This document shows positions 18,865 to 53,473 of a DNA stretch of 64,000 nucleotides, one piece after another. The notes beneath the pieces were generated by a model. It saw nothing but the letters and a program-made list of their open reading frames with translations. It searched no databases and was not told the DNA's origin. The translations under genes were made by a program, and so were the position numbers. Each line of letters begins with the position of its first letter. Position 1 is the first letter of the stretch. Source of the DNA: a plasmid; the sequence record NZ_CP029448.1. One strand, given 5' to 3'.

Positions 18865-18874
18865 GGAGCGTGTC

Positions 18875-34658: not shown

Positions 34659-34964
34659 ATGTTCAGCTATTTTATTTTACGCATTGAGAAGCAATTATTC
34701 TGTTATTTGTATGGGGGCATGCTGGCGCTGTTTCTGATACTCCTGTCTCCGTTTTTTTTCACAGGAGGGGGACTGCTCCTGGTGATGCTGTCAGTTGCGT
34801 TGTTCTGGGGCGGGCTGGCCCTGTATACGCGGCATACTGACCGGATGAGAAAGCCTGACGTTTCTCCACTCGTCAGTGTCCGGGATGGTATCCAGGTGGT
34901 GCCCGAGCCGCCAGATGATGATGGGGTCAGTTTGGATATCGAAAATTATTGTACGTTAAGGTGA
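34659..34964 (+). pseudogene. membrane-protein ORF whose 3' end runs into a Tn3-family IR (insertion-truncated gene)
   Basis: The last 10 codons ([10 protein letters not shown]) are encoded by the 38-bp IR at 34923-34960. Confidence 0.5.
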
Positions 34965-34974
34965 TTTTTTGTAC

Positions 34975-36540
34975 CTCTGAGCTGTGGTAGAGCTTGACCA
35001 CTTTGACAGGCAGCTTTGAGCGAGATATAGTCATTCGTACCCTGAGAATTACACTTTGAAGTGATTCAGGGTATGCGCTTACTGGTTACGAATATTGAGC
35101 GAGAATCATGTGATGATCGCCGCTTTTCTTTCGAGCCAGTAGGTGCTCCACGTTCGCTAACGAATACTCAGGGCATGCAGATAAACTGCTGGCTATATTT
35201 CTTTCGAAGAGCGTGGAATGCATACCAATCCCCGATAAAAAGGAGTTGGTGATGACTGTGACTAATCAATTTGCTGCGCACGTTGGTCTGGACTGGGCTG
35301 ATAAAAAACACGATGTCTGTGTTCAGTTTAAAAACTGTGAACGCGTATTCGATGTGATTGAACATACAGCAGAAGCGCTTGATGCCTGGCTTACTGAGTT
35401 ACACCAGAAAGTAAAAGGTAGAATCGCAATAGCTCTCGAACTGAAGAAGGGCCCCGTGGTATATGCTCTTCAAAAATACCCCTTTATCACCGTTTTCCCC
35501 GTCCACGCATTGTCCCTGGCTCGTTATCGGCAAGCCTTCTCGCCCAGCGGCGCTAAAGATGATCCGCAGGATGCCGAGCTGGCATTAGAGTTAATGCTGC
35601 GTTACCCCCAGAAGATAAAAGCTATTGAACCCGACAATGCGGATATTCGCTTACTTCAGCAACTGGTTGAGCAACGTCGTCAGTTGGTTGAAGATAAACG
35701 ACGCTTTGTGAACCGGATAATCAACACGCTTAAACAGTATTATCCTCAGCCACTGGAGTGGTTCTCACATCGGGGTAGCTTACTGTTGTGTGAGCTGATT
35801 ATCCGGTGGCCCAGTCTGCAACAACTGAAACGAGCCAGACGCGACACGATCCGCAACTTTCTGAATGCCAAAGGTGGTCGCGCTATGGCCCTTACCGAGC
35901 AACGTGTTGCGAGTATTGATAATGCGATCCCATTGACTACAGACCCGAGTGTTATAGAGGCTAATGCTTTGATGGCAGCAGCACTGGCGACACAAATTAA
36001 AGTCGTGAGTGAAATCATCAAAACCTATGACGAACGAATCGAAACGCTGTTTGACACATTGCCAGATGCGGGGCTGTTCAAATCACTTCCGGGCATGGGA
36101 CCGTGCATGGGCCCACGGATGCTTGCTGCACTTGGTGATAACCGTGACCGGTTTAACAGCGCTGAAGAAATTCAAAACTACGCAGGTATAGCACCGGTGA
36201 CCGAACGAAGCGGCCAAAAATCCTGGGTTCACTGGCGATGGCAATGTGCCAAGTTCGTCAGGCAGACCTTTGTTGAATGGGCTGCCAAGACGGTTAATTC
36301 ATCATACTGGGCCAAACTGTATTATCAGGGCCTCAGAGAAAAGGGCAAATCTCATCAGTCTGCGATCCGGGCACTGGCGTTCAAATGGATAAGGATCATT
36401 TACCGCTGCTGGAAGGCCAGAACCTGTTATGACGAAGCGAAATATTTGCTGGCTCTCGAAGCGAGACACTCGCCCTTACTGAAGCCATAAAAAGCTTGTC
36501 GAATGTCTCAGGGCGTGAAGCGGACATTGCAGACTGCCCA
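34975..36540 (+). mobile_element. IS110-family insertion sequence, 22 bp inside the Tn3-type IR
   Basis: Contains the DEDD transposase gene. A 5'- and internally deleted second copy at 42889-43350 shares the right-flank sequence gcttgtcgaatgtctcagg..ggacattg. Confidence 0.6.
35252..36490 (+). CDS. IS110-family (DEDD) transposase
   Basis: N-terminal HVGLDWADKKHD motif, central LPGMGP.. and IAPVTERSG; start chosen at MTVTNQF. Confidence 0.8.
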   Translation: MTVTNQFAAHVGLDWADKKHDVCVQFKNCERVFDVIEHTAEALDAWLTELHQKVKGRIAIALELKKGPVVYALQKYPFITVFPVHALSLARYRQAFSPSGAKDDPQDAELALELMLRYPQKIKAIEPDNADIRLLQQLVEQRRQLVEDKRRFVNRIINTLKQYYPQPLEWFSHRGSLLLCELIIRWPSLQQLKRARRDTIRNFLNAKGGRAMALTEQRVASIDNAIPLTTDPSVIEANALMAAALATQIKVVSEIIKTYDERIETLFDTLPDAGLFKSLPGMGPCMGPRMLAALGDNRDRFNSAEEIQNYAGIAPVTERSGQKSWVHWRWQCAKFVRQTFVEWAAKTVNSSYWAKLYYQGLREKGKSHQSAIRALAFKWIRIIYRCWKARTCYDEAKYLLALEARHSPLLKP

Positions 36541-36926
36541 GTAGAAAAAGTGCTATCAGAATTATCTAAAGGAAGATCGTATTTACCATGTCTCATTCTA
36601 ACTGTTTAATAAATTACAAAAATTAAAATTTCCATTTAATATCATCGCGTTAAGCAAGAGAATTAAACCTCTCATTTAATTTATGATTCTTATTTAATTC
36701 ATGAGTTGGTGTAAAAATAGGTTGCCGCACTATAGAAAGACACATATTTAAACCCAGCAGGAAATCATATTTGAAAGTAATGTGTTTAAGGGGCTGCGTA
36801 ACAAGAACAGCAAGTAAACACATAGTAATAACAGTTACCATTCCCATTTCGCAAGTGGCCATATCAGAGGTGAACTAATGCCTGCTGCAATTTTAAGAAT
36901 TAAGGTTATCCTAATAATTCTTTTGT

Positions 36927-37538
36927 ATGATTAAGATCATCGATAAATTTACTAAGGACTCATTAATGAAATTGCGACTCTGGAATCTATTACCCCATGA
37001 TTACGCTCCTTTTTTTCGTATTCTTCACATCATTGTGGCATTTCTAATATTATCACAAATTATTAACTCTAATCTGACAGAGACCGAAGCAATTGGTGAA
37101 CATAGTCTTGAAGGAGTTATAACCTGGATGCACATTATTTCAGGGTTAGGACTGATTATTTGTGGTTTTATTATGTTAAGTTGGATGCTTACTCAAAGAG
37201 GTTTTACTTATTATTTTTCATGGGTAGGGCTTGACTTTAGTGGTATTAAGCAAGATATAAAAACGTTGACTAGTTTCCGACTGCCCGATGCACATTCGGG
37301 AGGTATTGCCAGTACAATCCAAGGATTTGGAGTTCTAGCATTGCTAATTGTAGCACTTTCAGGTGGCCTATGGTTCTTGTTGAATACCATGCAGTCAAAT
37401 CTGGCTGAAACAGTAATCCACTGGCATAAGTTCTTTACTACTTTCATTGAGGTCTATTTTTATGCACATGGTGCAATGGGAGTTTTGCATATTTTAATTG
37501 AAAAATATAAAAGCCGCTCAGTTAACCTAAGTGACTAA
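36927..37538 (+). CDS. cytochrome b561-family / b-type cytochrome membrane protein
   Basis: 203 aa with 4 TM helices and conserved His (IISGLGL.., HWHKF.., AHGAMGVLHI). Confidence 0.5.
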   Translation: MIKIIDKFTKDSLMKLRLWNLLPHDYAPFFRILHIIVAFLILSQIINSNLTETEAIGEHSLEGVITWMHIISGLGLIICGFIMLSWMLTQRGFTYYFSWVGLDFSGIKQDIKTLTSFRLPDAHSGGIASTIQGFGVLALLIVALSGGLWFLLNTMQSNLAETVIHWHKFFTTFIEVYFYAHGAMGVLHILIEKYKSRSVNLSD

Positions 37539-37737
37539 TCTGTTGTGAGATAATATTACTTCAAGTTGAAGAAAACCCTAAAAATAAAATTTAGTTTACT
37601 AGAAGATGAAACAGCACTTGCAGAGACTTTTTAATTAAATTTAATAAAAACGAAAAAATATTCATGGCGAAATGATTGTTTAATTATCTATCATGGATAG
37701 AAATGTGAGTTAGTCGTCCTATTTTAGGAAGTTAATA

Positions 37738-38661
37738 ATGACTAAAACAAAAGGGTTACCTCGTCCGCTGACGCACTACGCTTGGCTTTCCATTGCCACG
37801 GCTATTGCCACTATCGGACTCAAAGGTGTGGCGTGGAAAATGACCGGTTCGGTCGGTCTGCTATCTGATGCCATCGAATCCGTAGTTAACCTCGCAGGAG
37901 CCCTAATGGCGCTCTGGATGCTGACCTTGGCTGCGCTTCCGGCCGATGAGAACCATGCATATGGGCACGGCAAAGCCGAATATTTCTCGAGTGCTTTCGA
38001 AGGATTTCTGATCCTATTGGCGGCAGCCAGTATCGCCTATACCGCAGTTGAGCGGATGTTAACTCCACAGCCGCTTGAGGAGATTGGTCTCGGATTACTG
38101 GTTTCAACAGTCGCATCAATCCTTAATTTTGTGACGGCTCGCATTTTGTTAAGGGCTGGCAGGCAGCACAACTCTATCACTCTTGAGGCAGATGCTCATC
38201 ACCTGCTGACCGATGTCTGGACGTCGGTCGGTGTCATTTTTGGTGTCGGACTGGTTTATCTGACCGGCTGGTTTTGGGTCGATCCGATCGTTGCATTGCT
38301 GGTCGCAGCCAACATCGTTTGGACTGGTTATCAGCTTATGAGTCGTTCAGCTGCAGGTCTGATGGACGTATCGCTACCCACGGAAGAACTCAAAAAAATC
38401 GAGTCACTGCTGGCAGGATATCGTGAACAGGGGCTTGATTTCCATGCACTACGTACACGCCAGGCTGGCGGGCGGGCGTTTATGACAATGCACATCCTAG
38501 TTCCTGGGCGATGGACTGTTCAATATGGGCACGACTGGGCCGAGCGTATAGAGAATGATATCCGCACCGCACTGCCTTTTATCCATATCACCACTCATGT
38601 GGAACCGTTGGAAGATCCCGCGTCAATGAACGACCAAACGCTCGACATTTCTGATCACTAA
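37738..38661 (+). CDS. cation diffusion facilitator (CDF) family divalent-cation efflux transporter
   Basis: 307 aa with 6 TM helices plus a C-terminal cytoplasmic domain; [18 protein letters not shown] and [10 protein letters not shown] motifs. Confidence 0.85.
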
Positions 38662-39010
38662 ACTAACCACATGTCGCTGGTCGGGCAGGGTAACAAACCT
38701 CGCTCTACAAAAATTTCAGGTATTCTCTATAATTCTGAGGGTACTTGATGTGACCTGCGCCCAATTGTTGGGCACGCAATATTTTTAAAAAGTCCGCTTC
38801 TGGCACACAGCGGACTTTCCTTACATAGATGATGCGTCAGGCTGCTAATCACAAAAGTTGTTACAGGGCGCTAACTATTAGGCCATGACTGCAAATAAAC
38901 ACCGTTATTCCAGCCTTTCAGGCAGTTTCATTGTAAGCGCCCTTAAATCAGCATCTTTTAACTCGAGCTATCCAGTTTCACACTAATACCTATCTTTTTG
39001 AAAGGGGGTA

Positions 39011-39322
39011 TTGGTTATGACTTCACAAGATCGCCAGCAATTCTGGCAGCAACATATTGATGCCTGGCAAGCATCGGATGCATCCGGTGCGGCTTTTTGT
39101 AAGCAGCGTGATTTGAATTACGCGCAGTTTAATTATTGGCGTAAAAAGTTTCGGGCAGAGGCTGTTGAAAAGCCTGCTGGTTTTGCTCAAGTGACACAAC
39201 TAGCAGCCCCGCTCAATGATTCTAATAATGAACTAGGCCTTCATTTGCCGAGTGGCATCAGTTTTTCGGGGATCAATCATAGCAATTTGGATGTCGTCTT
39301 AGCGCTGCTGAGGCAGTTGTAG
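39011..39322 (+). CDS. IS66-family orfA (TnpA accessory)-like remnant, orphan
   Basis: Pattern [21 protein letters not shown]....L.Y.QF.YWRKK is as in IS66 orf1 proteins. No tnpB or tnpC follows. Confidence 0.45.
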
Positions 39323-39349
39323 TGAAAGTGCGCTATTTACGGCCAGCCA

Positions 39350-41045
39350 AGCAGATGCCGGTGAGTTTGTCCCTGAAAGCTGGCGCAAAGTGGTGATTAC
39401 ACCTGCGGGTATTGACCGGCAGTACTATGAATTTTGTGCGCTCAGCGAGCTTAAGGGTGCATTGCGCTCCGGGGACATCTGGGTTAAAGGCTCACGCCGC
39501 TACAAAAACTTTGATGATTACCTCATTCCCGAAAAGGACTTTGACAAACTCACACCGGCGCTGCCCCTGCCCGTATCTGCTGATTATCATGAGTACATTA
39601 CCAGCCGTAAGACTCTGCTTCAGTCCAGACTTGAAGAGGTCAATGCCATGGCTGCCCTTGGTGAGCTGCCCGATGTCGAAATATCTGACAGGGGAGTAAA
39701 AGTCTCTCCGCTGGATAACTGCGTCCCGGTACAGGTTTCACCGCTGGCAGAACTGGTTTACAGCATGCTACCGCGCCCTAAAATCACGGAAATTCTCGAT
39801 GAGGTAAACAGCTGGACGGCGTTTACCCGACATTTTTCGCATATAAAAAATGACATTACCCGTCCCGATACCCGCCAGCTCCTCACCACCATCCTTGCGG
39901 ATGGCATCAATCTTGGCCTGACCAAAATGGCGGAAGCCTGCCCCGGAAGCACCAAATCATCACTGGAAGATATCCAGGCATGGTACATCCGCGACGAAAC
40001 CTATTCAGCCGCCCTCGCAGAGCTGGTAAACGCGCAGGGGAAAAGACCACTGGCGGCATTCTGGGGAGACGGGACAACGTCATCATCAGATGGACAGAAT
40101 TTCAGAACAGGCAGCTCAGGCCGCTACGCAGGGCAGGTTAACCCGAAATATGGGCAAGAGCCTGGACGTCAGTTTTATACCCATATTTCGGATCAATACA
40201 GCCCGTTTTACACCTGCATAATCAGCCGGGTCAGGGATTCAACCCATGTGCTCGATGGCTTGCTGTACCACGAAAGCGACCTGGAAATCAGGGAGCATTA
40301 CACCGATACCGCTGGTTTCACCGATCATGTCTTTGCCCTGATGCATCTGCTGGGATTTGCGTTCTGTCCGCGGATCAGGGATCTCCACGACAAAAAGCTG
40401 TTTATCAAAGGGAAAGCAGACCAATACCCGGCGCTTCAGTCACTGATATCAACGACCAGCCTGAATCTGAAAGAGATCGAAATTCACTGGCGTGAAGTAC
40501 TTCGTCTGGCCACTTCAATAAAGCAGGGAACCGTGACGGCATCCCTGATGTTGAAAAAGCTTGCCAGCTACCCCAAACAAAACGGACTTGCCAAAGCACT
40601 GAGGGAAATTGGTCGTATTGAACGAACTCTGTTTATGCTCGACTGGTTCCGCGATCCGGCACTTCGTCGGCGGGTACAGGCGGGACTGAATAAAGGAGAA
40701 GCCCGTAACGCGCTGGCGCGTGCGGTATTCCTACACCGGCTGGGTGAAATCAGGGACAGAAAACCGGAAAATCAGAGCTATCGCGCCAGTGGACTGACGC
40801 TGCTGACGGCTGCCATATCCCTGTGGAATACCGTCTATATGGAAAGAGCGGTCGATGCCCTGAAGCGCAAAGGGGTGAAGATCAACGAGCAACTGCTGTC
40901 GCATTTGTCCCCGTTAGGCTGGGAACACATCAATCTGACAGGCGATTATATCTGGAAAAGCAACCGGATACCGGCTTCCGGTAAGTTTCGTCGGCTGAGA
41001 CCAGCTAAAGTCGAAAGGTCAAAAAATAGCCTTAACGTACAATAA
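39350..41045 (+). pseudogene. 5'-truncated Tn3-family tnpA (C-terminal ~565 codons), near-identical to the 50163..53150 copy
   Basis: DNA homology to the full copy begins at gagtttgtccctgaaagctggcgcaa (39352 vs 51463). N-terminal ~460 codons are missing. Confidence 0.85.
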
Positions 41046-41069
41046 TTTTCGATATCCAAACTGACCCCA

Positions 41070-41353
41070 TTTTGGCTGACAAACCAGCTCGTATCTCCTC
41101 GCGCTCAGACAGTGTCAGGTGAGCTACAGCCCGCTTACGCTCATGGGGTTTTATGCCGCCAGTATCCCTTAACATAGTGAAGATCGTTCCGGGTTTTGAA
41201 CCCAGGATATTCGCTATTTCACTGAAGCCTGTTCCGTTCTTCCATAGTTCAAAAACAGAGGCTTTTTCCTCTGCTGTAAATGTTCGTCTCATTCAAAAAA
41301 CCTCCGCAACCCCATGTTTTCACATAACTGTTGCGTTGACCAATTGAATCTAC
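41070..41353 (-). mobile_element. IS30 5' fragment (IRL plus first ~73 codons of the transposase), truncated by the Tn3-type element
   Basis: Encodes MRRTFTAEEKASVFELWKNGTGFSEIANILGSKPGTIFTMLRDTGGIKPHERKR..., the IS30 Tnp N-terminus. Terminus tgtagattcaattggtcaacgc at 41332-41353 (reverse complement). Confidence 0.8.
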
Positions 41354-41371
41354 AATCATGTTTTTTATGGT

Positions 41372-41626
41372 GTGAGATTAAGTGAGATTCTTTTTCCTAC
41401 CAGTGAATATGGCACAGATGCTTTCTTTAAAGAATTTGAATTAATTAACAGTGTAATACTTCCATTAGTAATATTTGATTTTATAGACCGAAAGCCGATC
41501 ATGGTTATCGGCTTTGAGGAAGTGCCTGGGATTGATTCACTTATTGACTCTGGTATGGAAGTTGTTTTGTTAGATGGTTTAAGCGATCTGCTACTGGTTG
41601 AAAAACTGATGCCATTGTTTGATTAA
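41372..41626 (+). CDS. hypothetical protein (84 aa), AT-rich
   Basis: ORF only. Confidence 0.25.
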   Translation: MRLSEILFPTSEYGTDAFFKEFELINSVILPLVIFDFIDRKPIMVIGFEEVPGIDSLIDSGMEVVLLDGLSDLLLVEKLMPLFD

Positions 41627-42178
41627 ATCCCTGGAAATACATGTTACCCATTCGTATTAATGCATTTTACACGAACGATGTTTATTCCATTTACCTGTTT
41701 TCATAACTTCTCCCCTACGGAGAACTAACCAAACTGATCTGCATCTATGATCTTAATTATATAAAATTTGGGGGGCGTGATTCTAATGTCCTCATTGTAT
41801 TGGTAACAATCTTTTTTTCATCGTTTTTATTTTGATATTTAATATTGCTCTCAATTGATTTTTACCATTTCTTCATTCAATGATATGAGCGTCAAATTGA
41901 TTAGATAATGGTGATTTTTACCCTCTATCATCAAAGCTTGTGAAGCTATTAATATACAAAAAATTTTCAGTCGTTTTTCTATTGTCTCACATATTTTTAA
42001 GAGAGAATCTGTATGCTGTTCGCCATTCACTTATGTAGGCCACTTCGTACTAATCGCTTCAATCTAAAGAACTTCACTTTTCCTTAGCGTTTGTTATCGC
42101 AGAAATTCCCACGGAACCCCTAAGACGGTAAAAGGGGTGCCGGCGTACAATCCCTAAAAGATATTAAACGAAATTTTG

Positions 42179-42888
42179 GGTAATGACTCCAACTTACTGA
42201 TAGTGTTTTATGTTCAGATAATGCCCGATGACCTTGTCATGCAGCTCCACCGATTTTGAGAACGACAGTGACTTCCGTCCCAGCCTTGCCAGATGTTGTC
42301 TCAGATTCAGATTATGTCGCTCAATGCGCTGAGTGTAACGCTTGCTGATAACGTGCAGCTTTCCCTTCAGGCGTGATTCATACAGCGGCCAGCCATCCGT
42401 CATCCATACCACGACCTCAAAGGCCGACAGCAGGCTCAGAAGACGCTCCAGTGTGGCCAGAGTGCGTTCACCGAAGACGTGCGCAACAACCGTCCTCCGT
42501 ATCCTGTCATACGCGTAAAACAGCCAGCGCTGACGTGATTTAGCACCGACGTAGCCCCACTGTTCGTCCATTTCAGCGCAGACAATCACATCACTGTCCG
42601 GTTGTATGCGCGAGGTTACCGACTGCGGCCTGAGTTTTTTAAGTGACGTAAAACCGTGTTGAGGCCAACGCCCATAATGCGTGCACTGGCGCGACATCCG
42701 ACGCCATTCATGGCCATATCAATGATTTTCTGGTGCGTACCGGGCTGAGAGGCGGTGTAAGTGAACTGTAGTTGCCATGTTTTACGGCAATGAGAGCAGA
42801 GATAGCGCTGATGTCCGGCAGTGCTTTTGCCGTTACGCACCACGCCTTCAGTAGCGGAGCAGGATGAATCGCCAGAAGTACCCATTTA
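42179..42888 (-). mobile_element. IS1 copy 1, partial: right IR, insB, 5'-clipped insA; left IR and ~58 bp missing
   Basis: Right IR ggtaatgactccaacttactgat at 42179. InsB is 167 aa and intact. InsA N-terminus reads [10 protein letters not shown] instead of [12 protein letters not shown], through the junction with the IS110-family fragment. Confidence 0.85.
42194..42697 (-). CDS. insB: IS1 InsB
   Basis: Full identity in pattern to IS1 InsB. Confidence 0.9.
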
Positions 42889-43350
42889 TCACTGTTTTCC
42901 CTGTGCATGCCTTGTCACTGGCTCGCGATGGATCCGTGCATGCTTGCCTCATTGGGTGATAACCGCGACCAGTTTAACAGCGTTGAAAAACTCAAAACTA
43001 TACAGGCATTGAACCAGTAACCGAGCGAAGCGGCCAAAATCCAGGGGACACTGGCGTTGGCAGTATGCGAAGTTCGTCTGACAGACATTTGTGGAATGGA
43101 CTGCGAAGACGTGTAACTCATCATACTGGGCCAGACTTTATTACTCGAGCCAGCGTGAGCGTGAAAAAGGGAAATCGCATCAATCAGCTATCCGGGCTCT
43201 GGCGTTTAAATGGATAAGGATCCTTTACCGCTGCAGGAAGACCAAACCCGGTACGACGAAGTGAAATATTTGCTGGCACTGAAACTCTTACTGAAACCAT
43301 AAAATGCTTGTCGAATGTCTCAGGCCGTGATCGGACATTGATGATAGAAT
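42889..43350 (+). pseudogene. fragment of the IS110-family transposase gene with an internal deletion, plus the IS right flank
   Basis: Encodes ..[14 protein letters not shown].. and then jumps to ..LAALGDNRDQFNS..; stop codons present. Flank matches 36491-36535. Confidence 0.7.
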
Positions 43351-43411
43351 GTTTGCACCAGTTGGCGCTATCTCCAATAAAGGTGACGCCGTTGGGCTGG
43401 TGGATTTGCCC

Positions 43412-44317
43412 CTATATTTCCAGACACCTGTTATCACTTAACCCATTACTGGCCCGCTGCCGCAGATATTCCCGTGGCGAGCGATAACCCAGCGCACTAT
43501 GCGGATGCCATTCGTTATAATGCTCGAACGCCTCTGCAAGGTTCTTTGCTGCCGTTAACCCGTCTGGTTTGGGCATGATACTTATGTAGTCACGCTTTAT
43601 CGTTTTCACGAAGCTCTCTGCTATTCCGTTACTCTCCGGACTCCGCACTGCCGTGTTCTTCGGTTCAAGTCCCAACATCCTGGCGAACTGACGTGTTTCA
43701 TTCGCCCGGTAGCATGAACCATTATCCGTCAGCCACTCCACTGGAGACGCCGGAAGCTCGCTGCCAAAGCGGCGTTCCACTGCTCCCAGCATGACGTCCT
43801 GTACTGTTTCACTGTCGAAGCCACCCGTTGTGACCGCCCAGTGCAGTGCCTCACGGTCACAGCAGTCCAGCGCGAACGTGACCCGCAGTTTTTCTCCGTT
43901 ATCACAGCGGAACTCAAACCCGTCAGAGCACCATCGCTGATTACTTTCTTTCACAGCCACTCTGCCGGTATGTGCCCGTTTCGATGGCGGTACAGCGGGT
44001 TTTCGCTCAAGCAACAGCGCATTCTGGCGCATGATCCGGTAAACACGTTTGGCATTGATCGCAGGCATACCATCAAGTTCTGTTTGTCTGCGAAGCAGCG
44101 CCCATACCCGACGATAACCATATGTGGGCAGCTCTCCGATAACATGGTGTATACGGCGAAGCACATCCGTATCATCCGTGTGACGGCTGCGGCGGCCGTC
44201 CTTCCAGTCATCGGTTCGTCTGAGAATGACGTGCAACTGCGCACGCGACACCCGGAGACAACGGCTGACGAAGCTTACTCCCCATCCCCGGGCAATAAGG
44301 GCGCGTGCGCTATCCAC
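43412..44317 (-). CDS. insD: IS2 OrfB (InsD) transposase catalytic part
   Basis: 301 aa matching IS2 InsD. Confidence 0.9.
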
Positions 44318-44640
44318 TTTTTTGCTCGCCCATATTCAACGGCTTCTTTAAGGAGTTCATTTTCCATCGTTTTTTTGCCGAGCAGGCGCTGGAGTTCTTT
44401 AATCTGCTTCATGGCGGCAGCAAGTTCAGAGGCAGGAACGACCTGTTCTCCGGCAGCCACAGCAGTAAGACTTCCCTCCTGGTATTGCTTACGCCAGAGA
44501 AATAGCTGGCTGGCTGCCACACCATGTTGCCGGGCAACAAGGGAGACCGTCATTCCCGGTTCAAAGCTCTGCTGAACGATAGCGATCTTTTCCTGTGTAG
44601 TACGCCGTCTGCGTTTCTCCGGCCCTAAGACATCAATCAT
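44275..44640 (-). CDS. insC: IS2 OrfA (InsC)
   Basis: [33 protein letters not shown]... matches IS2 InsC. Confidence 0.9.
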
Positions 44641-44983
44641 CTGTTCTCCAATGACTAGTCTAAAAACTAGTATTAAGAATATCACTTATTTAAGTGATAT
44701 TGGTTGTCTGGAGATTCAGGGGGCCAGTCTAGCTGGTCATTGACCATGATTTTAGTCGTTTCGTTGCAGTGACGTAGGGCAAAGCTGAGGCCCTCGGTTC
44801 AGACCAGAATCCCGCTCCCTGTTTATCAATATATTATGGTTGTCTAGCCGAAGCTAACCGTCACAACGATGCTCCTGAAACGTTCAGTATCGTTCAACGG
44901 TTAGCACGGTGAGCTGCGTTTTCGCACAGCCTTAGCGTCGCGGTTCAGAGATGCCGTAAAGGCATCTCTGAAGGGCATGATGA

Positions 44984-45586
44984 TTAGTGCTGATGCTCCG
45001 TATCGGGCGCTCTACCCTCCGCCATTTTGTTTATTTCCTCGACAAAATGTATGTAGTGAATGTAGTCTTTTACATATTCGCGTCCCTGCTTAACCGATTG
45101 ATTCGCCTGCTGCTTACTGAGTTCGGCTTTGGTAAATTTTTCCCGGATAGCATGCTCAATGTTAGCGGTCACCTTTGCCACCAGGCTATCAACACTGTTG
45201 GTGCGAAGTGCGGCATCAGCCTCTTGTACAATAACAGGAATATGACCTGCCGATTTTACACCGGTAAACGATGCACCTTCCGCTTCACGGTGAATACGTA
45301 CCAGGGTGGTAAAAAGCTTTTGCTGGGCCTTTTCCTGAGAGGTTTGACTGCTGCCTTGTTTACTCATTGTTTCGTCAAACGCCTTTCTGACGTCATCTTC
45401 ACGGTTTTCTGGTACCCATTTTAATAATGGGGTAACATCACGCGCCTGAAGGGCGCTTTTAGCCTCGGTGATCACAGGCCCATCCATGCTGTCGCAGTGG
45501 GCAAACGCCGTTGTGCTTACGGTCATTCCCGCAAGGAACATAATGCTTGCGCACAGGGATGTTCTGGTCTTTTTCTGCTTTTTCAT
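44984..45586 (-). CDS. secreted helical protein (200 aa); predicted mature N-terminus begins with His (AFA|HCDSMDGPV)
   Basis: Signal peptide. K/E/Q/A-rich sequence with a His-rich C-terminus. Family not recognised. Confidence 0.55.
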   Translation of the reverse strand: MKKQKKTRTSLCASIMFLAGMTVSTTAFAHCDSMDGPVITEAKSALQARDVTPLLKWVPENREDDVRKAFDETMSKQGSSQTSQEKAQQKLFTTLVRIHREAEGASFTGVKSAGHIPVIVQEADAALRTNSVDSLVAKVTANIEHAIREKFTKAELSKQQANQSVKQGREYVKDYIHYIHFVEEINKMAEGRAPDTEHQH

Positions 45587-45701
45587 ATTAATACTCCGGG
45601 GTCTCTTTCGACCTGTTCATCTGCTTTTTTGTGTTTAAAGGAGGCAGAATTTCAGTCCTCTGCCGATTTGGTTGCAGAGTACTGGCGAGTAACCCGGGAG
45701 T

Positions 45702-45725
45702 CGTTCGAATTGATAAATTCGAACG
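45702..45725. promoter_or_regulatory. perfect palindrome cgttcgaatt-gata-aattcgaacg in the divergent intergenic region
   Basis: 10-bp arms with a 4-bp spacer. A further cgaacg half-site lies at ~45738. Confidence 0.5.
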
Positions 45726-45763
45726 TATGAAACGTAAAGTCGAACGTTCTGCTGACACGAAGC

Positions 45764-46954
45764 GTGTGTGGCGTCCGTTTCTCATATCTCGTTTTAAATT
45801 GTTGGTGCTCGTGCATGCTGAATGATCTATCTGTTTTTCTTCTGGCAGCAGGAATGATGCAGGCTGCATTGCTCTCTGTTTTTCTTCTTTTGCCGTCTAA
45901 CATCATACAAGTCAGCAACCGGCTATTGGTGATCGTTCTGCTGACCCTTGCCGCCGGTTTTGGTGAACTTTTCCTCTATGGTAGCGGCGTGAGTTTTTTA
46001 CACCCGAACTACGCCTATATCGGTACGCTTATCTCTCTGCTTCAGCCACCGGCCATCTATCTGTATACCCGTTCGCTGATGTATCGCCATTTTCGAATAC
46101 GGCCAGCTCATGCTGTACACTTAATCCCGTTTGCTACTGGCCTTATTGTGTTTTTCACGCTGTACGTTCCGTTATCTGACTCAGCAAAAATAACGCTCTT
46201 ACAGCAGCAGGATTTACCGGGCATGCCAGTATCACTGCCCCTTGCATTGGCCTATCACGGGGTATTTCTCGGCTGGCTTGGCTATTCCCTCAGACGTTTG
46301 CGGTCATTTAATTCGGATATTCAGCATCTTTATTCCGATATTGCCCGCCAGCAAATGCTCTGGCTCCGCTTCCTGCTGTCAGGTTATTTGGGACTTTGGA
46401 TAGTCAGTATTATTTGCTGCCTGTTTTTCTATCTGTTCAGGCTAACCGATAAAACGAGTTGGGTACTGCCCGTTGTCAGCATAGCGGGGTTTGCATTTAT
46501 TAATACGTTATTAGTTTGTGCGCTGCGGCAACCCGCTGCGTTTATGGGGCTAACGCAGGCAGATGAAATCCTGCTGGAGAATATTCAGCCGGTTAAAGCA
46601 CCGCAGTTACGGGGGGCTGAACAGGTGGATAAGGTGGCAGAATTTATGCACCGGAATCAGCCGTTTCTGGATTCCACCCTGTCCTTAAGCCAGCTTGCGC
46701 ATCAGTTAAAACTCTCGCCGCACGATCTGTCAGCCATTATCAACAACGGGTTTCAGCAGAATTTTTTTACGTTTATCAGCGAGTACCGAATAGAGCACGC
46801 TAAAAAACTCCTGGCAATGCCGGAAGATAAGCGGACCATTCTTGATATTATGTATTCCTCAGGCTTTAACTCTAAATCGGTCTTTAATACCGCGTTTAAG
46901 AAGCAAACGGGTTTAACGCCTTCAGAATATCGGCGGCGGCACTGTTGCAAATAG
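45764..46954 (+). CDS. membrane-embedded AraC/XylS-family transcriptional regulator (7 TM N-terminal domain plus C-terminal AraC HTH); 3' end clipped by IS26
   Basis: C-terminus ..ILDIMYSSGFNSKSVFNTAFKKQTGLTPSEYRRR is an AraC HTH. The last 5 codons come from the IS26 IR. The true start may be 45815 (MLNDLSV). Confidence 0.7.
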   Translation: MCGVRFSYLVLNCWCSCMLNDLSVFLLAAGMMQAALLSVFLLLPSNIIQVSNRLLVIVLLTLAAGFGELFLYGSGVSFLHPNYAYIGTLISLLQPPAIYLYTRSLMYRHFRIRPAHAVHLIPFATGLIVFFTLYVPLSDSAKITLLQQQDLPGMPVSLPLALAYHGVFLGWLGYSLRRLRSFNSDIQHLYSDIARQQMLWLRFLLSGYLGLWIVSIICCLFFYLFRLTDKTSWVLPVVSIAGFAFINTLLVCALRQPAAFMGLTQADEILLENIQPVKAPQLRGAEQVDKVAEFMHRNQPFLDSTLSLSQLAHQLKLSPHDLSAIINNGFQQNFFTFISEYRIEHAKKLLAMPEDKRTILDIMYSSGFNSKSVFNTAFKKQTGLTPSEYRRRHCCK

Positions 46955-47757
46955 TCGGTGGTGATAAACTTATCATCCCCTTTTGCTGATGGAGCTGCAC
47001 ATGAACCCATTCAAAGGCCGGCATTTTCAGCGTGACATCATTCTGTGGGCCGTACGCTGGTACTGCAAATACGGCATCAGTTACCGTGAGCTGCAGGAGA
47101 TGCTGGCTGAACGCGGAGTGAATGTCGATCACTCCACGATTTACCGCTGGGTTCAGCGTTATGCGCCTGAAATGGAAAAACGGCTGCGCTGGTACTGGCG
47201 TAACCCTTCCGATCTTTGCCCGTGGCACATGGATGAAACCTACGTGAAGGTCAATGGCCGCTGGGCGTATCTGTACCGGGCCGTCGACAGCCGGGGCCGC
47301 ACTGTCGATTTTTATCTCTCCTCCCGTCGTAACAGCAAAGCTGCATACCGGTTTCTGGGTAAAATCCTCAACAACGTGAAGAAGTGGCAGATCCCACGAT
47401 TCATCAACACGGATAAAGCGCCCGCCTATGGTCGCGCGCTTGCTCTGCTCAAACGCGAAGGCCGGTGCCCGTCTGACGTTGAACACCGACAGATTAAGTA
47501 CCGGAACAACGTGATTGAATGCGATCATGGCAAACTGAAACGGATAATCAACGCCACGCTGGGATTTAAATCCATGAAGACGGCTTACGCCACCATCAAA
47601 GGTATTGAGGTGATGCGTGCACTACGCAAAGGCCAGGCCTCAGCATTTTATTATGGTGATCCCCTGGGCGAAATGCGCCTGGTAAGCAGAGTTTTTGAAA
47701 TGTAAGGCCTTTGAATAAGACAAAAGGCTGCCTCATCGCTAACTTTGCAACAGTGCC
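46938..47757 (+). mobile_element. IS26 (IS6 family), complete, 820 bp
   Basis: 14-bp IRs ggcactgttgcaaa (46938) and tttgcaacagtgcc (47744-47757). Confidence 0.95.
47001..47705 (+). CDS. tnp26: Tnp26 transposase
   Basis: MNPFKGRHFQRDIILWAVRWYCKYGISYRELQEM... matches IS26 transposase. Confidence 0.95.
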   Translation: MNPFKGRHFQRDIILWAVRWYCKYGISYRELQEMLAERGVNVDHSTIYRWVQRYAPEMEKRLRWYWRNPSDLCPWHMDETYVKVNGRWAYLYRAVDSRGRTVDFYLSSRRNSKAAYRFLGKILNNVKKWQIPRFINTDKAPAYGRALALLKREGRCPSDVEHRQIKYRNNVIECDHGKLKRIINATLGFKSMKTAYATIKGIEVMRALRKGQASAFYYGDPLGEMRLVSRVFEM

Positions 47758-48095
47758 ATTTATACTGCCGCAGCCTTGGACAGTTCGTGGTTTACGTAAC
47801 CGGTATTGTTCCCACGTTTCGAGCTTTCCAGAACGACCTTCAACCCTCACCATCGGCCCTGCCAATGACAAGTTTGCCCACAAGGCAGTCTCGGAGATTC
47901 TTTTCGACCCATCAGCAACTTATGCCTAAGTCACCGGCGGCTTGCCTGCCACACATTGAACATTACAGACCAATTAGCACTTTGTCACCGGGGAAAGATG
48001 TAAAGATTATGTATAAATAGATTGGCTTAGAAGTGACATTTCAACTTTGGAGAAACAGGTGACATTTTAAACTTGCTTTAACAAAATTTTGGGAC

Positions 48096-48131
48096 TGACC
48101 GAAACAAAAAGGCCAGCCCCGGAGGGCTGGC
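48096..48131 (-). terminator. intrinsic terminator downstream of the TA operon (gccagccc-cgga-gggctggc plus T-run on the minus strand)
   Basis: 8-bp GC stem immediately after the higA-like stop; minus strand reads CTTTTTGTTT after the stem. Confidence 0.65.
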
Positions 48132-48134
48132 TAT

Positions 48135-48416
48135 TCAGTACAGGGCAATGACAGGTTTCTTGATGCCGCAGGCGTGAGCGTAGCGGGTCAGTGTGTCGAT
48201 GCTGGCTTTGGTGATGTTGTTTTCCAGGCGAGAAATAACCGGAGGTGTAACCCCCATGCGTTCAGCAACCTGCGCTTTTGTCAGGTTGTCATGCTTGCGC
48301 CATTCAGCAAGCAGCTCCCTGAGCTTTTCCTTACGTTCTTCTTCCTGCCATGCAGCGCGATATTCATCGTCCTGCATCCACTCGTTATGCAGTTCTTTAT
48401 GGCTTACCAGTTTCAT
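48135..48416 (-). CDS. HigA-like antitoxin (XRE-family HTH)
   Basis: 93 aa. LTKAQVAERMGVTPPVISRLENN is an XRE HTH. Overlaps the toxin gene 3' end. Confidence 0.8.
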   Translation of the reverse strand: MKLVSHKELHNEWMQDDEYRAAWQEEERKEKLRELLAEWRKHDNLTKAQVAERMGVTPPVISRLENNITKASIDTLTRYAHACGIKKPVIALY

Positions 48417-48726
48417 TAAGTACCTCCGCTAACCGCTTTTTGGCGAGATCGATTTCTTTCGCTGGCGTTTTCTGTGACTTCTTGATGAAAACACGGAGCA
48501 TGATGATGGTATTGCCTTTGTGGTATACCCAGATTCCCCTGGCTATGTCCGTCCCCATCGTGCGGATCTCAAAAAGTCCATCGCCCAGGGGCTTCGTGTC
48601 CGGCTCCCGCAGTAATCGGGCGTCATACTCCAGTTTGCCGATGAGACGGTCAAACTTCACCCTGATTTTTACGGGTAATGCTGTGGCTTCTTCCCTGGCT
48701 TCCGGGTGATAAACAACGCTAAACAT
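48397..48726 (-). CDS. RelE/ParE-superfamily toxin (HigB/Gp49-like), toxin-first operon
   Basis: 109 aa from MFSVVYHPEA (SD gggagg upstream). Motif ..GDGLFEIR......R..... then ...IIMLRVFIKKSQKTP. Confidence 0.75.
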   Translation of the reverse strand: MFSVVYHPEAREEATALPVKIRVKFDRLIGKLEYDARLLREPDTKPLGDGLFEIRTMGTDIARGIWVYHKGNTIIMLRVFIKKSQKTPAKEIDLAKKRLAEVLNETGKP

Positions 48727-48749
48727 GTGACCTCCCATTTCTATTAATA

Positions 48750-48801
48750 TTAACCTATAGGCTAATTTCAGACAAGGTAGAATTAACCTATAAGCTAATT
48801 T
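48750..48801. promoter_or_regulatory. two 19-bp direct repeats TTAACCTATA(G/A)GCTAATTT (each near-palindromic) upstream of the toxin gene; likely TA operator
   Basis: Repeats at 48750-48768 and 48783-48801, spaced 33 bp. Confidence 0.55.
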
Positions 48802-48840
48802 TGTTGGCAGTTATCGTGGCTACCCGGTCACTACCCTGTT

Positions 48841-48877
48841 AGCGTGAGTTTTCGTTCCACTGAGGAACGGGGATTTA
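48841..48877. repeat. Tn3-type terminal-IR-related sequence (inner ~26 bp cagtggaacgaaaactcacgctaa match the Tn3 IR; outer bases diverge)
   Basis: Compared from memory with the Tn3 38-bp IR. Confidence 0.5.
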
Positions 48878-49170
48878 TGCGCGTTAGCGCATGTAAGGCG
48901 GCAGGATGAAATGACAGGTAGCACCGAGGGTTAGCCGCCGATACCAGTGAGGGATCGAAAGGGATCGCCTATCCATCCCTTCACCCTGCAAAGCCATATT
49001 CCGCTAAAAGCGGCTCAGAGGCTTTTGTGCGCGGTCGGAGTGGTCACAACAAGGCGAAGCCGCAGTTGGGGCGTATCTCCGCGTTAGCGGGTCGTAAGAG
49101 CCGCTTACGAGCGTGTAAGCTAATTCTTCAGCGATATTTGCTGACGTATCCGGCGTGGCCGGATTTGTCC

Positions 49171-49215
49171 AATCCCTCGATGGCTAACAGCTCGCCTGTT
49201 AGCCATCGAGGGATT
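49171..49215. repeat. perfect 20-bp-arm hairpin aatccctcgatggctaacag-ctcgc-ctgttagccatcgagggatt
   Basis: Read directly. Confidence 0.8.
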
Positions 49216-49326
49216 CCGTTCTGAATGCCCCGCGCTTTAGCGTGGGGAGCTACTTTTGAGGCGCTCGCGCCGATGCTGTTCGGTTATCCACTTTTTAAAG
49301 GGGATAACAGTAATGTCTTTTATTTT

Positions 49327-49369
49327 TTGGTTTATCTTTTAATACGTAAGTAATTAAAAGATAAACCAA
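49327..49369. repeat. 14-bp-arm inverted repeat ttggtttatctttt ... aaaagataaaccaa
   Basis: Read directly. Confidence 0.7.
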
Positions 49370-49480
49370 AAGAGTATTTGCGCCATCTCGTTTGCACTTC
49401 ATTATCACTTACCCACAAGCTATACAGCAGTTGTGGTGGGTCTACGCCGGAACCGCCGAAAAATCCGTCATTCCTGTAGG

Positions 49481-49518
49481 CGGGATGGGTTGGATTTCGA
49501 AAATTATTGTACGTTAAG
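49481..49518. repeat. degenerate copy of the 38-bp Tn3-family IR, same orientation as the IR at 50024
   Basis: cgggatgggttggatttcgaaaattattgtacgttaag versus ggggtcagtttggatatcgaaaattattgtacgttaag. Confidence 0.65.
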
Positions 49519-49589
49519 GCTGTTTTTTGTACTGAGGTTTATTGCAGACGTGCAGAATCCCCGCCAGCTAAGGCGGTAGTAGGCGGGGA

Positions 49590-49988
49590 TCAGGCAAAGG
49601 TTAGGGAGTAGTATTCCTGTTTGCGCTGGCGAGCCACTTCACGCTTCGCTTTCATCCTGGCTAACCCGGCAGCGGCCTTACGCGTCCAGTTCTCAACCTT
49701 GATAGCGATTAACCGGACATCCCCGGAGGATATGATTTCTTCCGGGTTGGCCTTAAGCAGCCTGGCGCGTTCCCGGTAAACCTGTTTTAGCGGGATGCCG
49801 AGAATGGCGAAGAAATCCTCTGTAACCTCAATGTGCTTGCAGGCGCAACGGGCGTCATAAGGGTTGAAAGGGGCTTTTTCCGAGATGATGGCATTAAGCC
49901 AGGAGAGGCGATCACATCCCCGGCTGGCACGAGAAATCGACTTGTGACCCGCATCACTGCGCGTCGCCAGCCCGGCGCGTTCGGCCAA
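49590..49988 (-). CDS. hypothetical protein (132 aa) between two same-orientation Tn3-type IRs
   Basis: ORF followed by hairpin atccccgcc..ggcggggat at 49556-49589. Family not recognised. Confidence 0.4.
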   Translation of the reverse strand: MAERAGLATRSDAGHKSISRASRGCDRLSWLNAIISEKAPFNPYDARCACKHIEVTEDFFAILGIPLKQVYRERARLLKANPEEIISSGDVRLIAIKVENWTRKAAAGLARMKAKREVARQRKQEYYSLTFA

Positions 49989-50023
49989 CGTTTCAAGGTT
50001 ATGTATGGTTTGCCAGTCTCTTA

Positions 50024-53000
50024 GGGGTCAGTTTGGATATAGAGAATTATTGTACGGCAAGCCTGTTTTTTGAACAGGCTTGCCTATAGCAATAGGGTGT
50101 ACCCTTATGCGATACCATTTTTGTTAAAAATTCCGCATCAAATAATTTATGAGGGAAACTATATGGCAAGGAGGCAGATTCTTTCTCTGTCGGAAAGAGA
50201 ATCATTACTGGCATTGCCAGATGATGAGTTAACGCTGACCCGAATGGCCTATTTCAGTGAGCATGATCTGGCACTTATCAGTGCTCACCGTAAACCTGCC
50301 AGCCGTTTTGGTTTTGCCGTCCTTCTTTGCTACCTGAAAAATGTCGGCTTTGCTCCGGATAAAAAAATCCCACCCTCTGATGCGCTGCTGAAGCATATCG
50401 CCAGCAGGCTAAAGCTTACCGGGGATCTCTGGCCTGCTTACCTTTCCGGCAGGGATACGACCCGGCGTGAGCATTTAACCGAACTGTACCGCTATCTTGG
50501 CGTAAAGGCGTTCACCGGCAAAATACAGCAGGACGGTATTACGCACCTGTTGTCGATGGCGACGCGCACCGATAAAGGTATTCTCCTGGCCGAAGAGTTA
50601 CTGGTCTGGCTCCGGCAGAACAACGTGATAATTCCCGCGATTGATGTCGTGGAGCGGACCTGTGCGGAGGCCATGGCTGGCGGAGATAAAATCGTATTTC
50701 AGACCCTGAATGCCCCGTTAACTCCGGCGCACCGGGATGCCCTGGATCGTTTACTTGAGTCATCAGATAATCAGCCTTCCAGGCTGACATGGCTTCTGCA
50801 ACCGCCGGGTAAAATCAATGGTAAGAACGTACTGCAACATCTTGATCGGCTCAGCAGCATTGAATCGCTGGCATTACCTGAAGGTATAGATCGTACCATT
50901 CACCAGAACCGGTTGCTGAAACTGGCGCGGGAAGGCCGAAAGATGAGTAGCCGGGATTTGACCCGATTTTCAGCAGCCCGCCGTCATGCGATCCTGGTCT
51001 GCGTGCTGGAAGAAGCCAGAGCCACACTGACAGACGAAGTGATTGAGCTGCATGAACGAATGCTGAACAGCCTTTTCAACAAAGCCAAAAGAACACAGGC
51101 TGAGCGCCTTCAGCAGACCGGAAAGCTGATCCAGTCCAAACTGAGGCAGTACATCGATGTTGGTCAGGCGCTGTCTGATGCCCGCGACTCCGGTGGCGAT
51201 CCATGGCTCGCAATAGAAAACATACTCCCGTGGCCTGAATTTGTCGCCAGTCTGGAGGAAACACGCCATCTCGCCAGAAAAAATAATTTTGACCCGCTGC
51301 ATATTATTACTGAGAAATACAGCACATTACGGAAATATGCCCCGCGCATGTTGTCCGCTTTACAGTTAGTCGCAACCCCGGCAGCACAACCTCTGGCTGA
51401 TGCGCTGGTTGTGATCAAGGATATGTACCGGAAGCAGTCACGTAAAGTTCCGGCGACTGCGCCGCTTGAGTTTGTCCCTGAAAGCTGGCGCAAGGTGGTG
51501 ATTACACCTGCGGGTATTGACCGGCAGTATTATGAATTTTGTGCGCTCAGCGAGCTTAAGGGAGCGTTGCGCTCCGGGGACATCTGGGTTAAAGGCTCAC
51601 GCCGCTACAAAAATTTTGATGATTACCTCATTCCCGAAAAGGACTTTGACAAACTCACACCGGCGCTGCCACTGCCCGTATCTGCTGATTATCATGAGTA
51701 CATTGCCAGCCGTATGACTCTGCTTCAGTCCAGACTTGAAGAGGTCAATGCCATGGCTGCCCTTGGTGAACTGCCCGATGTGGAAATATCCGACAAGGGC
51801 GTAAAAGTCTCTCCGCTGGATAACTGCGTTCCGGCACAGGTTTCACCGCTGGCAGAACTGGTTTACAGCATGCTACCGCGACCTAAAATCACGGAAATTC
51901 TCGACGAGGTAAACTGCTGGACGACGTTTACCCGTCATTTTTCGCATATAAAAAATGACATTACCCGTCCCGATACCCGCCAGCTCCTCACCACCATTCT
52001 TGCGGATGGCATCAATCTTGGCCTGACCAAAATGGCAGAAGCCTGCCCCGGGAGCACCAAATCATCACTCGAAGATATTCAGGCATGGTATACCCGCGAC
52101 GAAACCTATTCAGCCGCGCTTGCTGAGCTGGTAAATGCGCAGGGAAAAAGACCACTGGCGGCATTCTGGGGAGACGGAACAACGTCATCATCAGATGGAC
52201 AGAATTTCAGAACAGGCAGCTCAGGCCGCTACGCAGGGCAGGTTAACCCGAAATATGGGCAAGAACCTGGACGTCAGTTTTATACCCATATTTCGGATCA
52301 ATACAGCCCGTTTTACACCTGCATAATAAGTCGGGTCAGGGATTCAACCCATGTTCTCGATGGTTTGCTGTATCACGAAAGCGACCTGGAAATCAGGGAG
52401 CATTACACCGATACAGCTGGTTTCACCGATCATGTCTTTGCCCTGATGCATCTGCTAGGCTTTGCGTTCTGTCCACGAATCAGGGATCTCCACGACAAAA
52501 AGCTGTTTATCAAAGGGAAAGCAGACCAATACCCGGCGCTTCAGTCACTGATATCAACAACCAGCCTGAATCTGAAAGAGATCGAAATTCACTGGCGTGA
52601 AGTGCTGCGCCTGGCAACCTCGATAAAGCAGGGAACCGTGACGGCATCCCTGATGCTTAAAAAGCTTGCCAGCTACCCCAAGCAAAACGGACTTGCCAAA
52701 GCACTGAGGGAAATTGGCCGTATTGAACGAACGCTGTTTATGCTCGACTGGTTCCGCGATCCGGCACTTCGTCGGCGGGTACAGGCGGGACTGAATAAAG
52801 GAGAAGCCCGTAACGCGCTGGCGCGCGCGGTATTCCTGCACCGTCTGGGTGAAATCAGGGATCGTAAACCGGAAAATCAGAGCTACCGCGCCAGCGGACT
52901 GACGCTGCTGACGGCAGCTATCTCGCTGTGGAATACCATCTATATGGAAAGAGCGGTCGATACCCTGAAGCGTAAAGGGATGAAGATCAACGAGCGACTG

Positions 53001-53173: not shown

Positions 53174-53473
53174 ATGCAGGGACACTGTCCCTACTGTCAT
53201 AAATTTGACCCGGTGCTGAAGCAGCTGGCCGGACAGTATGGCTTCTCCGTGTTCTCTTACACCATTGACGGACAGGGTGATGACGCGTTTCCGGAAGCGC
53301 TGCCGGCGCCTCCTGACGTGATGCAGACCTTTTTCCCCAATATCCCGGTGGCCACACCGACTACGTTTCTGGTGAACGTAAACACGCTGGCAGCGTACCC
53401 GATCCTGCAGGGCGCCACGGATGCACAGGGCTTTATGGCCAGAGTGGATACGGTATTTCAGATGATGCACTGA
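53165..53473 (+). pseudogene. trbB: 3' fragment of a second, diverged trbB (C-terminal 98 codons), abutting the Tn3-type right IR
   Basis: About 88% nt identity to 19335-19640. The encoded GHCPYCHKFDPVLKQL... has substitutions relative to the resident trbB. Confidence 0.85.

Follow-up and report, generated by a model that had tools for sequence, protein, structure and literature searches.

A non-autonomous Tn3-family derivative with a truncated transposase gene on an F-like plasmid has transposed as a discrete unit

Can a transposon that has lost 435 codons of its transposase gene still move, and where would its present ends have come from? This question is raised by a locus on an F-like IncFII/IncFIB plasmid (sequence record NZ_CP029448.1), of which we analyzed one stretch of 64,000 nucleotides, hereafter called the window. 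Two inverted Tn3-family repeats enclose 6,146 bp of it (34923-41068), a unit that carries genes for a cytochrome b561-type membrane protein and a CDF cation-efflux transporter, the insertion sequence (IS) ISEsa2, a stub of an IS66-family element and a remnant of the transposase gene tnpA. A preliminary description of the window had proposed a non-autonomous Tn3-family derivative that could be mobilized in trans by an intact tnpA copy located nearby. We find that the unit is a non-autonomous Tn3-family derivative, without a transposase or cointegrate resolution of its own, and that it has moved as a discrete element on at least two occasions. The explanation that we consider quite probable as a whole combines an internally deleted unit, mobility in trans, assembly in place by recombination, and a resident locus in the plasmid gene orf342 as the source of the copies found elsewhere.

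The left and right terminal inverted repeats (IRL and IRR) of the unit, designated A and B (Table 1), share an identity of 39 nt, GGGGTCAGTTTGGATATCGAAAATTATTGTACGTTAAGG. This confirms the repeat-bounded unit of 6.1 kb that the preliminary description had delimited as 34923-41069; the left edge stands, whereas the right edge lies at 41068, base 41069 being part of the flank. Inverted repeats of this transposon type start with GGGG and finish with ACGTTAAGG. Those of the unit are of the expected length of about 38 bp, begin with GGGG, are inverted, occur once at each end and match the inverted repeats of intact relatives. Shuffling the sequence 100 times never yielded a 28-nt core of the repeat that the window contains four times. 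Altogether, the window contains five copies of the repeat: A (34923), B (41068), a degenerate copy C (49481), a diverged IRL D (50024) and an IRR E (53173).

The evidence for mobility comes from copies of the unit at other sites, which were found by looking up the exact 551-aa open reading frame of the tnpA remnant and the IS66 orfA in public assemblies. Most matching contigs have the same orf342 context as the window, and three are exceptions. Two of these, L021 (GCA_922832385.1) and L022 (a metagenome scaffold from ENA), match window positions 34923-41068 to both tips of the inverted repeats and are flanked by GAGAA on either side; the third, L023 (an ENA scaffold), contains the unit end to end between two copies of TTCCT. 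Relative to the window, these copies show two to three single-nucleotide polymorphisms (SNPs) and no insertions or deletions. When the unit is removed from L021 together with one duplicate, a continuous open reading frame of 1,002 aa is restored, which encodes a distant Tn3-family transposase (28% identical), and the same operation on L023 restores a 263-aa open reading frame of a tyrosine recombinase. Many plasmids of Klebsiella, Raoultella and E. coli contain the reconstructed empty site with GAGAA at 100% identity. The chance of two perfect 5-bp duplications is about 1e-6. Tip-to-tip copies with 5-bp duplications in restorable genes thus demonstrate that the unit is mobile. With intact ends, no functional transposase and occurrence in three contexts, two of them with perfect target-site duplications, it has the properties of a trans-mobilized non-autonomous element, and the proposal of mobilization in trans gains support from outside the window.

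The 5-bp duplication seen at the two other sites is lacking around the window copy, where the outer flanks are ATGAT on the left and ATTTT on the right; a target duplication here was a check set beforehand, and it turned out negative. The preliminary description had named precisely this situation, no duplication and repeats stemming from two insertions, as speaking against its proposal. It is what the window shows, and the unit is mobile all the same. The missing duplication, the unrelated flanks (orf342 and IS30) and the origin of the two repeats from different parental elements would all agree with a coincidental pairing of repeats from two independent insertions, in which the segment between them never moved as a unit. 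We regard such a coincidence as very improbable, since the identical 6,146-bp segment with exact repeat tips is found at two other loci with the perfect duplications and restorable genes described above. We had at first favored the pair A/B as an inert by-product, on the grounds of the missing duplication, a pairing of A with E and the occurrence of the exact structure in a single PLSDB record, and this was overturned by the copies at other sites.

Comparison with intact relatives shows what the unit has lost. The parent transposon of about 6.3 kb has the order IRL, cytochrome b561, CDF, tnpR (on the opposite strand), res, tnpA, IRR and is carried by many enterobacterial plasmids, for example pLEC-b38d (NZ_CP026168, locus L002), and by Serratia proteamaculans CP117172 (locus L007); a transposase of the parent type is labelled "TnEc1" in one GenBank record, LC735981. 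Window positions 34923-35025 and 36513-38932 together correspond to L002 3001-5517 at 99.9-100% identity, with ISEsa2 interposed, and positions 39362-41068 correspond to the 3' 1.7 kb of tnpA with the IRR. The intervening part of the parent, L002 5518-7615 with tnpR, res and the 5' part of tnpA, is missing from the unit. Across the entire 64-kb window, there is no match for the cognate tnpR or for most of res (L002 5518-6243); from the region upstream of tnpA, only the 68 bp directly preceding the gene remain, and these stand before the intact copy. Homology to the parent stops 15 bp inside the 3' end of tnpR, at the terminus of the IS66-family element, and resumes at tnpA codon 436. From these junctions, an IS66-family element would have entered tnpR, and a later deletion reaching from inside this element into tnpA would have taken tnpR, res and 435 codons. 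The truncation of tnpA had thus been recognized correctly in the preliminary description, and the number of lost codons, given there as about 460, had not.

The products of the unit agree with this picture. The remnant matches positions 427-954 of the NCBIfam model for Tn3 transposases, and the N-terminal DUF4158 domain is absent, so that codons 436-995 stand in place of a full-length DDE transposase of about 1,000 aa. A module of tnpR or tnpI with res is likewise absent. End binding by Tn3-family transposases is a function of their N-terminal part, and the remnant, without its 435 N-terminal codons including DUF4158, should therefore be unable to bind the ends. Four intact genes are present within the 6,146 bp. 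The cargo listed in the preliminary description (an IS110-family element, a b561-type cytochrome, a CDF pump and a relic of IS66 orfA) was borne out by Pfam, NCBIfam and RefSeq. The cytochrome b561 protein (WP_001515348.1) is common to the unit and to intact transposons. The CDF protein scores 235 bits with TIGR01297; for its metal, every specific NCBIfam model stays below its cutoff, the best sub-threshold matches being MntE/FieF-like (300 bits with the MntE model, whose cutoff is 500). The transposase gene of ISEsa2 occupies 35252-36490, and the boundaries of this element are accurate to about 6 bp. The IS66-family stub encodes the accessory protein TnpA/orfA at 39017-39322 (NF047593, E 4e-26).

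Two repeats of 1.7 kb that are 95% identical and lie 12 kb apart can mislead short-read assemblers, and the truncated tnpA with its repeated ends could in principle be a collapse or chimera of two copies. This has next to no probability: the tnpR/IS66, IS66/tnpA and B/IS30 junctions are found base for base in the finished Raoultella plasmid p602815-NR, to which the window is 99.98% identical over 18989-53176, and again in over 15 assemblies that were produced independently from isolates and metagenomes (NCBI, ENA and JGI). With the same structure recurring in all of these, an artefact as the cause of the truncated gene was excluded. Exact-pattern scans of genome and metagenome contig collections did not find the IS66/tnpA and tnpR/IS66 junctions, nor the junction of E with trbB described below, and these collections evidently do not contain the relevant assemblies.

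The surroundings of the unit indicate how it probably came to lie in orf342 without a duplication. The empty backbone site in pKOX-137 reads CCAGATGATGAT|GGCTGG. Beyond IRR E, both p602815-NR and locus L011 continue with ATGAT GGCTGG and the remainder of orf342, which identifies E (53136-53173) as the duplication partner of A. The insertion in orf342 is therefore the entire 18,251 bp from 34923 to 53173, composed of a left arm (A...B), 8.9 kb of other DNA and a right arm (D...E). The only paper on this sister plasmid p602815-NR, from 2025, treated an "ISEsa2-to-ISRor7 region" as one insertion into orf342 and did not dissect it (PMC11783820). The flanks that the preliminary description had assigned to the unit, a truncated membrane-protein gene on the left (34659-34964, which is the 5' part of orf342) and a 5' fragment of IS30 on the right, are those observed, and it is the single insertion cutting both of them that could not be upheld. 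Of the 8.9 kb between the arms, 283 bp belong to IS30 and 8.7 kb form a foreign mosaic. The mosaic begins with an IncX1-type ddp3-parA fragment, IS1, an IS110-family fragment and an IS3-family element, and continues with DUF6448 and AraC genes, IS26, a RelE/ParE toxin-antitoxin pair and a pCRY-type repA fragment with a degenerate inverted-repeat relic.

The right arm is a tnpA-only element with the diverged IRL D at 50024-50061 and IRR E at 53136-53173, the latter differing from A and B at 1 of 38 positions. It is probably the "ISRor7" of PMC11783820. Its tnpA (50163-53150) encodes 995 aa. The preliminary description had called this copy full-length and nearly identical to the truncated one; full-length it is, and with 95.1% identity to the remnant at the DNA level and 97.7% at the protein level, nearly identical it is not.

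This divergence reflects two parental lineages. Variants of the cargo transposon that we call X (L002) and Y (L007) are about 5% apart in tnpA and show almost no differences in the cargo. The remnant has 7 mismatches to Y-type L007 (99.6% identity) as opposed to 84 to X-type L002, and is of the Y type at all 83 sites that separate the two tnpA copies of the window. The intact tnpA is of the X type (99.7%). Upstream of it, the second copy is Y at six informative sites, and it is X from 50216 on, which places a switch at approximately 50141-50216. Such a switch from Y to X is the pattern expected of the reciprocal product of a crossover. Plasmid pRHBSTW-00872_2 (NZ_CP056149.1, locus L008) has a D-type IRL, the same hairpin and promoter as the right arm, a Y-type tnpA that is 99.88% identical to the remnant, and a B-type IRR. 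The combination of D, Y-type tnpA and B thus exists as one element, which means that a tnpA-only element has D and B as its ends; A and E would have terminated a cargo transposon of the X type.

The window copy was most likely assembled in place by recombination of these two related elements. A resident X-type cargo transposon (A...E) in orf342 would have met a Y-type D...B element on foreign DNA, and one crossover close to the tnpA start would have yielded A, the cargo, Y-type tnpA and B, followed by the foreign DNA and by D, the Y-type promoter, X-type tnpA and E. The insertion of ISEsa2 and the damage by the IS66-family element would have come after this crossover. Recombination between arms of this kind does take place. 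Locus L011 is a collapsed form, with a single switch from the first to the second tnpA copy at 40073-40160, an E-type IRR and ATGAT, and tracts of X/Y conversion are present in L012 (10346-11674 and 16204-17910) and L027 (7973-9681), which indicates that the 95%-identical direct repeats interact often in nature. Two other origins of the arms were considered. A replicative cointegrate was rejected, as 83 of 1,707 positions differ between the arms and their left ends are A and D, respectively. Resolvase-mediated recombination at res is less likely, since the switch at about 50141-50216 lies at the start of tnpA, outside the repeats of the resolvase site.

The resident copies also point to the source of the copies at other sites. 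All 16 orf342-resident copies (the window and 15 loci) have the flanks ATGAT/ATTTT and fall mainly into three common haplotypes at positions 36920, 37942 and 40952, L015 and L027 carrying other differences. Haplotype 2, that of p602815-NR, is found unchanged in the GAGAA copy, and the TTCCT copy corresponds to haplotype 1 with one private SNP. Two launches from two haplotypes of one locus make the resident locus more easily the progenitor than the copy, and the orf342-resident locus would thus be the birthplace and source of the other-site copies.

For the movement itself, a full-length transposase of the same lineage would act on both inverted repeats, and the complete unit would be inserted with duplication of 5 bp of the target. 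It is simplest to assume that this enzyme is the 995-aa TnpA whose gene lies 9 kb downstream on the plasmid itself, and we infer that the intact tnpA is a plausible helper. Neither neighbor of the unit in the window has a resolvase. With res absent, a cointegrate might be resolved by homologous recombination of the host between the two copies, or insertion might be direct; the simple insertions in L021-L023 imply that one or the other took place. The route of cointegrate resolution and the exact order of events are likewise what we infer from these structures. We lean slightly towards an accidental origin, in which two elements recombined, IS-mediated decay left a new pair of inverted repeats, and the resulting unit was launched at least twice, from two haplotypes of the locus, by the adjacent resolvase-less tnpA-only element, giving simple insertions with no res being involved.

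Several observations weigh against these interpretations. The flank of D is TCTTA and that of B is ATTTT; the absence of a duplication requires at least one additional hidden rearrangement. The reciprocal IS30 junction (IRL, AAAAT and the 3' part of IS30) is absent from PLSDB. The 5' part of the first tnpA copy, the expected carrier of the reciprocal crossover signature, is deleted, and the cargo offers three X/Y-informative sites (two X and one Y), a number insufficient for typing the left arm, whose hybrid origin is presumptive. Plasmid pCAV1151-215 shares D with X-type tnpA at 100%, and its direction of descent is assumed. The independent new sites number two only. Any TnpA of the X or Y type in the cell could be the helper, and 570 PLSDB records contain at least 80% of a tnpA-only query (window 49990-53210, almost all tnpA).

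An alternative to assembly in place is that the unit was born elsewhere, as an internal-deletion derivative of a Y-type cargo transposon similar to that of CP117172, and that the window copy is a secondary recombinant. The derivative would have inserted into IS30 on another replicon, its cargo would have recombined with that of the resident X-type transposon, and further events would have put end D in place of the left part of the second copy. One parent suffices for this, as L007 has an A-type IRL, the same cargo, and a tnpA and IRR that are 99.6% identical to the remnant; the cargo sites do not separate X from Y, and the B/IS30 junction resembles an ordinary insertion junction. We judge this route unlikely. 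It requires more events, and recombination in the cargo should have left A, cargo, tnpR and res in the second copy, an arrangement that was not observed; the second copy that is observed has IRL D, the hairpin and the Y-to-X switch, and fits a single crossover with a D...B element. Furthermore, both other-site copies match haplotypes found among the orf342-resident copies, and a unit within IS30 flanked by a target-site duplication was not found.

With Tn3/gamma-delta-type transposons that carry cytochrome b561 and CDF genes, the unit shares the 38-bp inverted repeats, the cargo, a tnpA 95-99.7% identical and the 5-bp duplications. In the intact parent, tnpR and tnpA are divergent, whereas in the unit tnpR, res and 435 codons of tnpA are missing, and ISEsa2 and the IS66 stub are present. 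Transposase-less TIMEs and TIME-COMPs have been shown experimentally to be mobilized in trans; TIMEs are about 240-260 bp long and occur in multiple copies, and a TIME-COMP has a whole TIME copy at either end (PMC4133298, PMC13367494). These elements have in common with the unit the 38-bp Tn3-family repeats, the lack of a transposase of their own, the 5-bp duplications and the possible presence of passenger genes. The unit differs as a single, internally deleted transposon of 6.1 kb with a large tnpA remnant, and works like a TIME without being one: miniature elements of the TIME or MITE type measure about 30-300 bp and are non-coding, as opposed to 6,146 bp with intact genes, and one inverted repeat per end, with no repeated miniature element at the termini, sets the unit apart from a TIME-COMP. 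The D...E element, for its part, shares with IS1071-like tnpA-only elements the order of inverted repeat, tnpA and inverted repeat without a resolvase, a comparison that applies to the helper and not to the unit. Finally, the 18,251-bp structure resembles plasmid fusions formed via two transposon copies, in having directly repeated arms around foreign DNA, a collapsed form (L011) and conversion tracts (L012). Unlike those of a fresh replicative cointegrate, its arms are 5% divergent and derive from different elements. While non-autonomous Tn3 derivatives are already known as a kind, this element, its natural mobility and the history of its assembly appear to be undescribed.

Transposons with a truncated tnpA are usually treated as dead by annotation pipelines and in plasmid papers, and this remnant is still mobile. 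With it, other plasmids acquire a CDF gene, a gene for cytochrome b561 and an IS110-family element in complete form, and its insertions disrupt a recombinase gene of a plasmid and the transposase gene of another transposon. The progenitor, the collapsed form and the transposed copies can all be found in public assemblies, so that the making of a new mobile unit from the ends of two elements can be followed stage by stage at this locus. Such information is of use for the curation of mobile elements (ISfinder, TnCentral) and for tracing metal-resistance cargo in IncF plasmids of Klebsiella and Raoultella. The known mechanism of Tn3-family transposition is unchanged by the finding. Should the accidental origin that we slightly favor be true, "dead" remnants in plasmid mosaics would be a renewable source of mobile units, and Tn3-family transposition in natural plasmids would routinely yield simple insertions without site-specific resolution.

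Table 1. Features of the 18,251-bp insertion in orf342 and of its flanks, in window coordinates
Feature	Coordinates	Strand	Evidence or remark
orf342, 5' part (113 codons when intact), cut by the left inverted repeat	34659..34922	+	Empty site in pKOX-137
IRL A, left end of the unit	34923..34960	+	100% identical to the IRL of L002 and L007
ISEsa2 (IS110 family), 65 bp inside the IRL	35026..36512	+	Absent from intact relatives; Pfam/NCBIfam IS110; RefSeq annotation
Cytochrome b561-type membrane protein, cargo	36966..37538	+	PF01292
CDF cation-efflux transporter, cargo	37738..38661	+	PF01545 and PF16916 (ZT_dimer)
tnpR, final 15 bp, sole remainder of the resolvase gene	38918..38932	-	L002 homology stops at L002 position 5517; tnpR there at 5503-6144
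IS66-family left end, 429 bp	38933..39361	+	GTAAGCG terminus; 85.7% identity to IS66-family elements of Proteus/Providencia plasmids
tnpA remnant, codons 436-995, DDE catalytic part only, Y type	39362..41045	+	PF01526
IRR B, right end of the unit, overlaps the tnpA 3' end	41031..41068	-	Matches of the other-site copies end exactly here
IS30, first 283 bp: IRL and N-terminal 74 codons of the transposase, cut by IRR B; flank	41069..41351	-	98.3% to IS30 in CP014296; HTH_38
Foreign mosaic of about 8.7 kb between the arms	41352..50023	.	
tnpA-only Tn3-family element, 3,150 bp	50024..53173	+	IRL D, hairpin, 67-bp promoter region, tnpA, IRR E
trbB fragment abutting IRR E	53174..53529	+	100% identical to Klebsiella pneumoniae IncFII(K)-type plasmids

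The plasmid context adds some further detail. About 10 kb of F-type transfer genes are kept at window positions 8998-18988 and were lost from p602815-NR (the "12-gene deletion" of PMC11783820); the window plasmid is therefore a less-decayed relative of p602815-NR and not this plasmid itself. To the right of E, the junction with the trbB fragment is also present in L012 (17911-18266) and replaces ATGAT and the 3' part of orf342. It looks as if a second F-like plasmid had later been fused to this end of the transposon, and the tnpA-only element, which lacks res, may have produced the fusion as a cointegrate that stayed unresolved; the reciprocal junction lies beyond the window. Beyond the trbB fragment lie IS1 and a type I restriction-modification system.

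At the left end of the tnpA-only element, a perfect 10-bp stem with a 9-nt loop (GGCAAGCCTG TTTTTTGAA CAGGCTTGCC) extends over 50056-50084. It begins inside the inner end of IRL D, lies about 80 bp upstream of the intact tnpA and is conserved in the element of pRHBSTW-00872_2 (L008 2533-2561). The hairpin could be a terminator that shields tnpA from outside transcription. A block of 4.8 kb from this part of the window (46937-51768) is 100% identical to positions 7638-12469 of locus L006 (pCAV1151-215, NZ_CP011600.1, Phytobacter ursingii). It comprises IS26, the RelE/ParE pair, the repA fragment, IRL D and the first 1.6 kb of tnpA and begins exactly at IS26, which suggests an IS26-mediated transfer of part of the locus.

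Within the mosaic, a second IS110-family fragment beside IS1 (42988-43330) is 83-93% identical to the 3' end of ISEsa2. In the related tnpA-only element of L008, an IS110-family element (5560-5705) lies within the IRR, directly after CCTTAACG. This location recalls the IS4321/IS5075 group, which targets inverted repeats; ISEsa2 in the window sits 65 bp inside the IRL. The degenerate inverted repeat C (49481-49518), next to the truncated repA, has the outer end CGGGATGGG as opposed to GGGGTCAGT. The region 49300-50023 that includes it is 92-100% conserved in small pCRY-type plasmids, for example Yersinia pestis pCRY, and the relic is thus an old scar of that plasmid family.

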